Part shown: piece by piece, positions 298-1,792 of the stretch
How positions within the stretch are numbered: the first letter of the stretch is position 1
How the letters are laid out: each line of letters opens with the position of its first letter
Source: a virus
Lineage: Duplodnaviria > Heunggongvirae > Uroviricota > Caudoviricetes
Virus record (IMG/VR): IMGVR_UViG_3300029745_000166
Strand: one strand, 5' to 3'
DNA: 4,084 bases
Made by a program: the position numbers and the translations under genes
Notes under the pieces: generated by a model
Database searches by the model: none
The model's input: only the letters and a program-made list of their open reading frames with translations
What the model was told of the DNA's origin: nothing

Positions 298-765
298 ATG
301 AACCGCGTACTGTGCGTGGTCATCATTGCCCTGCTGGTGGCCTGTGGTGCGCTTAGTCTGGGGCTGAATCATTACCGCGATAACGCCATCACCTACAAAG
401 CGCAGCGCGATAAAAAAGCCAGAGAGCTGGAGCTGGCAAACGCCACCATTACTGATATGCAGGTGCGCCAGCGCGATGTTGCTGCGCTCGATGCAAAATA
501 CTCGAGGGAATTAGCCGATGCGAGAGCTGAAAATGAAACTCTGCGTGCTGATGTTGCCGCTGGTCGTAAGCGCCTGCGGATCAACGCCACCTGCTCCGGT
601 ACCGTGCGTGAAGCCACCGGCACCGCCCGCGTGGATAATGCAACCGGCCCCCAACTGGCAGACACCGCTGAACGGGATTATTTCACTCTCAGAGAACGGT
701 TGATGCTGATGCAGAAGCAGCTGGAAGGGGCGCAGGACTATATCCGCACTCAGTGCCTGAAATAG
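298..765 (+). CDS. Rz: Rz, inner-membrane spanin subunit (i-spanin) of the phage lysis cassette
   Basis: The 155-aa product aligns along its length with lambda Rz as I recall it (shared blocks [53 protein letters not shown]). It has an N-terminal transmembrane segment followed by a charged, coiled-coil-like periplasmic domain. Confidence 0.93.
518..703 (+). CDS. Rz1: Rz1, outer-membrane lipoprotein spanin subunit (o-spanin), wholly embedded in Rz in the +1 frame
   Basis: The 61-aa product matches lambda Rz1 ([40 protein letters not shown]). It has a signal peptide with a lipobox (LVVSAC) and a proline-rich mature region. GAGGGA sits 8 nt upstream of the ATG at 518; an alternative ATG lies at 533. 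Confidence 0.9.
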
Positions 766-793
766 GTTTTGCTGATGCGCGGTATTGTCGCCG

Positions 794-858
794 TATCCCC
801 GCATTAACAGAGACCGCAGCCCGACAGGGAGACTCCTCTGCGCGAGTGTGCGGGGATA
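794..858. repeat. GC-rich nested inverted repeat: perfect 10-bp arms tatccccgca / tgcggggata around a 45-nt spacer that contains a second inner inverted repeat (cagag / ctctg)
   Basis: Seen in sequence: 794-803 is the exact reverse complement of 849-858; 807-811 cagag pairs with 836-840 ctctg. No ORF of meaningful length overlaps it on the + strand, and no U-tract follows. Confidence 0.45.
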
Positions 859-1115
859 ATCAAAAACGACACACACCGGGGTTTACCGCGTTAACGGAGC
901 GCGGCGTTGTCCCCTCATAGTCGCCTGTCCGGTGCGATGGTGGAAGAAGCCGGATGTTTATCACTATTAATTGATGACACAGAAATGGATTCATTGAATT
1001 TCAGCACGTTTTTGTATTCGTGTTATTGAACATCTGTTTATTTTACTTTTAACATATTGATAATAAAAAGAGCTGTAAATCTTTAGATGAGTCGATTTTG
1101 TCCGGGGAAGTTCAA

Positions 1116-1256
1116 ATGGATTTTATGCTGACGGTTTCTGGAGTGGTTATCCTGTCCATTGCTTATACTGCAGATAAATATGGCTGCCATTTGTTATCAC
1201 GTATTGGCGCTTATTGTTCGTTGATGCTGATTTTCTCGTCGCTTTTTTTTGAGTAA
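1116..1256 (+). CDS. Hypothetical 46-aa hydrophobic peptide (MDFMLTVSGVVILSIAYTADKYGCHLLSRIGAYCSLMLIFSSLFFE) with two hydrophobic segments
   Basis: ATG at 1116 with GGGGA 7 nt upstream; an AT-rich tract precedes it (about 960-1100) with several TTGA-type -35-like hexamers; TAA at 1254-1256. Below the ORF-track cutoff; no homolog recognised. Confidence 0.3.
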   Translation: MDFMLTVSGVVILSIAYTADKYGCHLLSRIGAYCSLMLIFSSLFFE

Positions 1257-1780: not shown

Positions 1781-1792
1781 GGGCGGCGACCT
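1781..1792 (+). other. cosN: cosN 12-nt cohesive end GGGCGGCGACCT
   Basis: Exact match to the lambda 12-nt single-stranded cohesive end, flanked on both sides by lambda-like end sequence. Confidence 0.85.

Follow-up and report, generated by a model that had tools for sequence, protein, structure and literature searches.

The subject here is an AT-rich island, and the small gene within it, in a 4,084-nucleotide (nt) stretch of tailed-phage DNA (IMG/VR record IMGVR_UViG_3300029745_000166, Caudoviricetes; "the window" below refers to this entire stretch). Our reading, to which we would give a probability of roughly 0.6, is that the island is a moron that is expressed in lysogens and encodes an orphan small inner-membrane protein, uncharacterised in function. 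The gene is an open reading frame (ORF) of 46 amino acids (aa), MDFMLTVSGVVILSIAYTADKYGCHLLSRIGAYCSLMLIFSSLFFE, which runs on the + strand from ATG at 1116 to TAA at 1256 and is the same as ECs1538 of Escherichia coli Sakai prophage Sp6 and WP_000347013.1, a "hypothetical protein". It is a real but narrowly distributed gene, ordinary in kind, that has been annotated and is listed in a published translatome table, but has never been studied. A preliminary description of this DNA supposed that so short an ORF would have escaped annotation. That is wrong: the PGAP pipeline calls it in every RefSeq genome examined, and ECs1538 has been on the Sakai map since the original annotation (2001). Two records of the phage GenBank collection contain the ORF, unannotated in both. 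The window as a whole covers the right end of a lambda-like prophage together with its packaging region (Rz, then about 1.2 kb of small features, cos and terminase); an E. coli O104:H4 prophage matches it at 99.6% identity.

An inserted cassette between the lysis genes and cos

The island (956-1430) is 36% G+C. Its flanks are GC-richer: Rz and the non-coding GC-rich element at 775-955 are 57-60% G+C (0.55-0.60 in 100-nt windows) and the terminase genes 51%. The tract at about 960-1100, already singled out as AT-rich in the preliminary description, is indeed only 27% G+C as against 55-60% on its left, and 100-nt windows within 951-1100 range from 0.27 to 0.29. The left edge of the island is exact, at 955/956; the right edge, at about 1430, lies inside the last ~13 codons of ylcI, the convergent gene that is the usual right-hand neighbour. 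In a prophage of an ST131 strain (L087) the GC element is joined directly to ylcI, without the island. A shorter core, approximately 956-1365, is common to three further loci (L088, L089 and L212) that have a different right-hand context, from which ylcI is absent. The block 775-1583 moves as a unit among prophages with lambda-type nu1/A, HNH-TerS-TerL and other terminase modules; the cassette is found with four different packaging modules, so that the comparison of this slot across related prophages, proposed earlier as a check, comes out in favour of a travelling cassette.

The slot itself was surveyed in 112 viral contigs that were gathered by the GC element alone and were otherwise unselected (loci L092-L211). 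The sequence 3' of the last base of the element (...GGAAGAARCCGGA) falls into at least 14 unrelated classes: 26 contigs have a 110-aa lipoprotein-like ORF there, 21 the AT-rich island, 17 a lambda-type p78 (ybcV) gene and 11 ylcI directly, while in several the cos region follows at once. The known accessory site between lysis genes and cos, to which the gene had been assigned, is therefore a real cargo slot, and its exact anatomy is fixed: it starts at the last base of a conserved 180-nt element that is also present in lambda, and the base after that element (955/956) is a hot, recombination-prone junction. (The cargo includes two different lipoprotein-like ORFs of about 110 aa each, MKMKRNLPLIILLSSLVMGC... 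and MKRRLLLLFLLSVLAVGC....) Among 5426 complete E. coli genomes, 734 have the island, in 788 copies, to be compared with 4485 copies of the GC element; some 80% of the slots are empty or filled with other cargo.

The definition of a moron goes back to HK97 gene 15 and to Juhala and Hendrix (reviewed in PMC3594210). The island is inserted between sequences that adjoin one another in a related phage (the L087 junction, together with the multiplicity of fillings), and its base composition is unlike that of its surroundings; it is an inserted cassette. Like HK97 gene 15, it is an addition relative to related phages, has a deviant G+C content, appears to be expressed in the repressed prophage and encodes what is predicted to be a small membrane protein. 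It differs in its genome position, in the absence of homology between the peptide and gp15, and in lacking a terminator of its own: no terminator-like site was found 3' of the ORF, nor is one given in Table S4 of Huecker et al. (2017).

A comparison closer to hand is the Rz-cos cargo of lambda and DLP12, that is, bor, ybcV/p78 and ybcW/p79, which occupies the same lysis-cos slot, next to the same GC element, and, as is predicted for the island, includes an envelope product. Bor is expressed in lysogens. The window has no bor, as had been noted: a tblastn search with lambda Bor yields a spurious match only (E=1.7 over 11 residues), and the peptide is without a lipobox. Bor is a 97-aa outer-membrane lipoprotein whose gene is on the opposite strand, to the left of the GC element, whereas the peptide is a predicted 46-aa inner-membrane hairpin encoded on the late strand, to the right of the element, and the two sequences are unrelated.

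Expression in the uninduced lysogen

Huecker et al. (2017; PMC5597208) analysed uninduced Sakai by strand-specific RNA-seq and Ribo-seq and placed ECs1538 among 250 "short annotated genes". In lysogeny broth (LB) at 37°C the ORF has an RNA value of 57.6 reads per kilobase per million mapped reads (RPKM), a footprint RPKM of 26.1, a ribosomal coverage value (RCV) of 0.46 and a coverage of 0.98 (PMC5597208, Table S2). These values satisfy the thresholds for translation in that study (coverage ≥ 0.5, RCV ≥ 0.25). In the brain-heart infusion (BHI) control the corresponding values are 32.7, 7.3, 0.23 and 0.81, and in BHI at 14°C with 4% NaCl they are 2.1, 0.6, 0.29 and 0.13. Thus the gene is transcribed, and its message is covered by ribosome footprints (over 98% of the ORF, and continuing past the stop codon), in a lysogen that has not been induced, which bears on a question that the preliminary description had put to RNA-seq and Ribo-seq data.

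The neighbouring segments provide the reference. In LB, ECs1537, an old ORF over the GC element, has an RNA RPKM of 3.0 (footprint 2.1, coverage 0.18); ECs1536 has 10.1 (6.7, 0.35); the holin gene ECs1530 has 8.4 (8.4, 0.49); and ylcI (ECs1539), on the opposite strand, has 45.6 (PMC5597208). RNA is thus ~19-fold higher over ECs1538 than over the GC-element segment just upstream. A rise of that size points to a promoter inside the island and argues against simple read-through of the late transcript from spontaneously induced cells. A promoter predicted by BPROM 248 bp upstream (Huecker et al., 2017, Table S4; PMC5597208) was considered as the source of the transcript and rejected because it lies inside the segment with an RNA RPKM of 3.0.

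The same comparison bears on a different role for the peptide, as a late accessory of lysis or packaging that would be made from the Q-antiterminated late transcript after Rz/Rz1 and would tune holin, spanin or membrane events. The gene is oriented like the late operon, and the mere ~350 nt that separate it from the spanin genes upstream contain no terminator; no strong promoter of its own has been recognised, and two transmembrane (TM)-like helices are also what class II holins and pinholins have. However, RNA in the uninduced lysogen is 6- to 19-fold above that of the holin gene and the upstream late segments, which speaks for independent expression. Most related phages do without the gene, and no similarity to holin, antiholin or spanin families was found in Pfam, PHROGs or NCBIfam; the ORF comes after the spanins and beyond the conserved non-coding element. 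A late lysis or packaging function is, on balance, decidedly unlikely.

Where in the island a lysogenic promoter would lie is suggested by comparison of alleles. Four -35-like hexamers had been pointed out in the AT-rich tract, and they are there (TTGATG at 971-976, TTGAAT at 994-999, TTGAAC at 1026-1031 and TTGATA at 1057-1062); TTGA is mildly enriched in 960-1100, with 4 occurrences against 1.2 expected (p about 0.03). In a scan, they do not form part of a recognisable sigma-70 promoter on the + strand. What stands out instead is a block of 35 nt at 1036-1070 that is identical at 35 of 35 positions between alleles whose neighbouring segments are only 67-71% identical. The block is the same in 104 of 110 copies, and the others differ at 1-2 positions; by our own arithmetic, a run of 35 unchanged positions would be expected, at ~30% divergence, with a probability on the order of 1e-5. 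It is the best candidate for a promoter or operator, and likely to be one, as judged from sequence. The -10 candidates are TAACAT at 1050-1055 (with TTGAAC at 1026-1031 as its -35 element) and GATAAT at 1059-1064; TTGAA at 1026-1030, upstream of both of these -10-like hexamers, is conserved. The only match of the sigma-70 scan at the block is on the minus strand, at 1079-1051. Also on the minus strand, TATCAATATGTTA at 1062-1050 fits WATCAANNNNTTR, the consensus for integration host factor (IHF). The drop of expression at 14°C with salt would fit a thermoregulated AT-rich promoter of the H-NS type, but this is offered as a suggestion. RNA folds of the leader, the end of the ORF and the spacer are either no better than those of shuffled sequences or not conserved between alleles; in particular, no structured 5' leader was found (z = -0.16 for the leader), and Rfam has nothing relevant in the window.

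Transcription does not stop with the ORF. The 3' spacer (1257-1388, + strand) contains no recognisable terminator, and in Sakai the transcript of the ORF extends through it and into the 3' end of ylcI. Two "novel genes" of Huecker et al., XECs147 and XECs148, at ~1260-1424 on the + strand, have RNA RPKM of 38-50 and footprint RPKM of 18-19 (PMC5597208). XECs148 corresponds to a GTG ORF at 1286-1396. The signal of these two segments indicates that the ECs1538 transcript is unterminated and antisense to ylcI over the 3' end of that gene. The part of the supplements of Tree et al. (2014) covered here lists no small RNA at these coordinates.

Conservation of the reading frame and the predicted peptide

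Shuffling the island produces an ATG ORF of at least 46 aa in 34% of cases. The length of the ORF is therefore no evidence that it is a gene and, since length is uninformative, its more-than-chance status rests on comparison and on the published expression data. The comparison is limited by a narrow distribution. Carriers include O157:H7, O104:H4, ST131 and avian pathogenic E. coli lineages, and the gene is single-copy. No relatives were found outside E. coli: a set of 5.8 billion proteins yielded only E. coli clusters (fragments and frameshift variants among them), an exhaustive HMMER search of 1.84 billion cluster representatives only the peptide itself, its fragments and repetitive proteins, and GTDB, searched at one genome per species with a protein pattern and a degenerate DNA pattern, no match. 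Viral and metagenome contigs contain E. coli prophage copies only, and a scan of metagenomes for non-standard alleles produced one contig, near the L088 allele. The peptide matches no family at E ≤ 1 in Pfam, NCBIfam, PHROGs or PADLOC. Full-text searches of the literature returned no papers for WP_000347013, ECs1538 or the peptide sequence, and that sequence is absent from the supplements of Ribo-seq papers on enterohaemorrhagic E. coli.

Within these limits the ORF is well kept. The same 46 residues are encoded by 88 of 109 copies, and a mid-ORF frameshift, which would have spoken for a chance ORF, is seen in only one of the 109. The Shine-Dalgarno-like GGGGAAG at 1104-1110 (+ strand; 8 nt between its G-run and the ATG), which had been noted at the outset along with the ORF, overlaps a segment, CGGGGAA, that is unchanged among the three alleles, whereas identity elsewhere in the leader is 67%; Table S4 of Huecker et al. 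(PMC5597208) gives a Shine-Dalgarno sequence 4 bp upstream of ECs1538, with a dG of -3.6. All alleles preserve the ATG, the GGGG motif and the ORF length, apart from one variant with GTG for ATG. Variation of the C-terminus centres on a run of eight T at 1243-1250 (+ strand), in the last codons of the ORF, which is a slippage hot spot: a T9 variant makes a 45-aa product, T7 and other variants have tails that bring the product to 49-51 aa, and one cluster of such variant proteins (P0002) has 46 member sequences. The run was also considered as a terminator and rejected, there being no stem before it.

One diverged allele, that of strain SHP24 (45 aa, 71% protein identity), allows the segments of the locus to be compared. 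Identity is 95% in the GC element (775-955), 71% in the 5' part of the island (956-1035), 100% in the invariant block (1036-1070), 67% in the 5' leader (1071-1115), 81% in the ORF (1116-1250), 62% in the 3' spacer (1257-1388), 67% in the ylcI tail (1389-1430) and 87% in the ylcI core (1431-1574). The 25 differences in the ORF comprise 12 synonymous and 13 non-synonymous changes (pS 0.37, pN 0.13), giving a ratio of non-synonymous to synonymous divergence (dN/dS) of 0.28 (Fisher p=0.004), and the synonymous divergence is on a par with that of the non-coding flanks. Amino acids are replaced conservatively (V/I, S/A, M/I, F/L); among simulated mutation sets, the frame stays open with an equally small change of hydropathy in just 1.25%. 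Within the common allele there are 4 synonymous changes and 1 non-synonymous change. The evidence for selection on the protein, drawn as it is from sequence comparison, is moderate but consistent.

These figures also bear on the possibility that the transcript itself is the functional product, a non-coding or antisense RNA that reaches into the 3' end of ylcI and modulates that gene, the 46-codon frame being incidental. What lends this some weight is that + strand RNA at 38-50 RPKM continues for at least 130-165 nt past the stop codon, without a terminator, into ylcI; that footprint density and RCV downstream are near those in the ORF; that ECs1538, with an RCV of 0.46, falls short of the 1.55 that short annotated genes average in LB (PMC5597208); and that the shuffles so readily produce an ORF of this length. 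Against it, dN/dS is low and the replacements are conservative, keeping hydropathy; the ORF, at 81%, is better preserved than the 3' spacer that would hold the antisense function, at 62%; the Shine-Dalgarno sequence and start codon are conserved; the cassette is also found where there is no ylcI downstream; and the predicted folds are no more stable than those of shuffled sequences. We regard a purely RNA-based function as unlikely, though it is the alternative to be taken most seriously.

If the ORF is read as a protein-coding gene, its product is a hydrophobic peptide (GRAVY, the grand average of hydropathy, 1.11). The two hydrophobic segments seen in the first description were found again, at residues 1-19 and 26-45, with Wimley-White values for a 19-mer of -2.7 and -8.5 kcal/mol, respectively. 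AlphaFold2, run on a three-sequence alignment, yields helices at 2-22 and 24-44 with a break at G23 and a mean predicted local distance difference test score (pLDDT) of 72. A two-helix inner-membrane hairpin is thus predicted, and topology prediction, one of the checks first proposed, gives the same picture; Huecker et al. also predict an inner-membrane protein with 2 TM helices (PMC5597208). Basic residues (K21, H25 and R29) are grouped at the turn and acidic residues are found at both ends, and the positive-inside rule would then place the loop on the cytoplasmic side. Conservation within the peptide is highest in the loop and at the beginning of helix 2 (A19-D-K-Y-G ... L26-L-S-R-I-G-A-Y-C34), suggesting a specific contact rather than bulk damage to the membrane.

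A type I toxin would be a peptide that depolarises the membrane, is restrained by an antisense RNA and serves prophage stabilisation or abortive infection; the preliminary description had named such toxins, alongside small membrane regulators, as a fit. Size and hydrophobicity do fit (46 aa, with two hydrophobic segments), as does the AT-rich prophage context, which is shared with Hok/Gef, Ldr, TisB and ZorO (hokD is in the same O157 prophage), and convergent transcription of ylcI might read through over the ORF. A perfect extended -10 sequence, TGTTATAAT, is located on the minus strand at 1274-1266, just past the stop codon and pointing back into the ORF. The SHP24 allele does not conserve this sequence and the L088 allele has lost it by deletion, so that it is probably a chance feature of AT-rich DNA; the sigma-70 scan found no minus-strand promoter over or after the ORF, and no conserved antisense promoter was found. 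Moreover, the peptide matches no Hok, Ldr, TisB, Ibs, ShoB, Zor or other Pfam or NCBIfam family at E ≤ 1; the leader is neither conserved nor structured; two helices joined by a conserved polar loop are not the one TM helix and charged tail of these toxins; the ORF is measurably translated in growing cells; and the gene is single-copy. The toxin interpretation, which thus lacks a family match, a conserved antisense partner and a structured leader, must be considered very unlikely.

The peptide may resemble in kind the small inner-membrane regulators of E. coli such as AcrZ, MgrB, SgrT, KdpF and MgtS: it is likewise hydrophobic, with fewer than 50 residues, and its conserved short polar stretch could be a contact surface. 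These regulators have one TM helix, are encoded by chromosomal core genes and have known partners. In contrast, the peptide has two predicted helices and is phage-borne, in E. coli prophages only.

Taking the island as a lysogen-expressed moron with a membrane-protein gene, events might be pictured as follows. An AT-rich moron of ~475 bp would have been inserted at the junction between the conserved GC-rich element and the ylcI/cos/terminase end, bringing with it one small gene, ECs1538. In the repressed prophage the gene would be transcribed from a promoter of the island, most likely in or beside the 1036-1070 block, and in lytic growth it would also be read within the late transcript. The 46-residue product would insert in the inner membrane as a helical hairpin, its conserved loop (with K21, H25 and R29) probably cytoplasmic and its acidic termini periplasmic. 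The loop and helix 2 may contact a specific membrane protein, either the host's own or one from an incoming phage, and the peptide would then serve as a small-protein regulator or in exclusion rather than poison membranes in general.

Several observations weigh against this picture. The sigma-70 scan of 960-1100 identified no full promoter on the + strand, and no terminator was detected for the cassette. Footprints persist past the stop codon at 18-19 RPKM, with an RCV of 0.37-0.52, the drop being only about 30%, which implies that part of the Ribo-seq signal may be background or translation in another frame. The read numbers are small (single-digit counts appear in the differential-expression table) and, since the upstream late-region genes are multi-copy in O157, read assignment could exaggerate the step-up of RNA. 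There are only three or four alleles, and the test for selection rests mainly on one pair of them. As a TM helix, the N-terminal segment of the common allele is a borderline case, though that of SHP24 is clearer. The searches produced no homologue of known function that would support a mode of action.

A bolder version would combine protein and RNA: a young gene of E. coli prophages, derived from AT-rich phage DNA, would specify a new two-helix membrane effector of lysogens (for superinfection exclusion, or as a regulator of a transporter or of the envelope), and its unterminated transcript would serve as an antisense brake on ylcI, making a dual-function cassette. We mention it as a long shot.

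The GC-rich element and other neighbours

The fixed left border of the cargo slot, the GC-rich (60%), ~180-nt non-coding element at 775-955 (+ strand), may turn out to matter more widely than the peptide. Of 5426 complete E. coli genomes, 1888 carry it, at 4485 places altogether, and PGAP annotates nothing at these; it is also present in 398 phage records that include lambda, Stx1 and Stx2 phages and Salmonella phage ES18. In lambda it lies at about 46.86-47.04 kb, and in lambda and DLP12 it is between bor and p78/ybcV; its usual place is just upstream of cos or of the small terminase gene, whatever precedes it. Rfam has no match for it. Helices on the + strand pair 784-788 with 866-870, 794-804 with 848-858, 820-822 with 827-829, 878-881 with 911-914 and 886-890 with 900-904, and a terminal hairpin (927-933/949-955) has a conserved purine-rich loop, GCGAUGGUGGAAGAA. 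The terminal hairpin covaries at 5 of 7 pairs (UCCGGU/ACCGGA, for example, being CUCGAU/AUCGAG in ES18). In 18 diverse copies the 38-pair structure is 94.6% paired, and both partners have changed in 10 pairs, where shuffles give 3.6 +/- 1.4 such pairs (none of the 500 reaching 10) and slid controls 2-5, in a test that is not fully independent, the structure having been drawn partly from the sequences tested. The G-U pairs fit the + strand, that of the late transcript, only. The element is probably a structured RNA on that strand; RNA over it is low in the Sakai lysogen (ECs1537, RNA RPKM 3.0; PMC5597208).

Some phage records annotate a coding sequence over the element, as Sakai once did with ECs1537, and a 55-aa GTG ORF at 753-920 (+ strand) matches PHROG 6954, "Rz-like spanin", with E=1.4e-14. 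That ORF was rejected as coding: relative to the lambda copy there are single-base indels, and the variation has no codon periodicity. The coding-sequence calls over the element are accordingly annotation artefacts.

To the left of the element is the end of the lysis cassette, with the Rz spanin gene at 298-765 (+ strand; "lysis protein" in the matching RefSeq genomes) and Rz1 embedded in it at 518-703 (+ strand), both from the ORF list; the prophage already has a class II holin upstream. Between endolysin and Rz there is an insert of ~300 nt (in the window, 198-296 on the + strand, and 90-122) with a strong terminator-like hairpin (AAAACCCCG...CGGGGTTTT) followed by a T-rich tail, and with an unannotated hydrophobic ORF of 32 aa whose stop is one base before the Rz start. 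The ST131 prophage has an annotated 28-aa ORF at this position; both end in IRWW.

To the right, on the minus strand at 1389-1574, is the gene of the YlcI/YnfO family (DUF3950; NCBIfam NF041551, Pfam PF13132) that converges on the peptide gene. YlcI has a weak HicB-like match, and its sequence pattern looks ribbon-helix-helix-like. Its gene always adjoins packaging genes, and its last ~13 codons, being part of the island, differ between island alleles. Further along, the window matches the right end of lambda as far as ...GGTTACG and then has a lambda-type cosN, GGGCGGCGACCT, at 1781-1792 (+ strand); from what is established for lambda, we take this to be the cohesive-end sequence. The gene nu1 (1976-2485) and then terminase A, the large terminase subunit, follow, as annotated in matching genomes.

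If the peptide of ECs1538 is a functional lysogenic-conversion factor, then approximately 1 in 7 sequenced E. coli strains carries it. It would, if that is true, be a tractable new example, belonging to no described family, of the small proteins by which prophages alter the envelope of their host.

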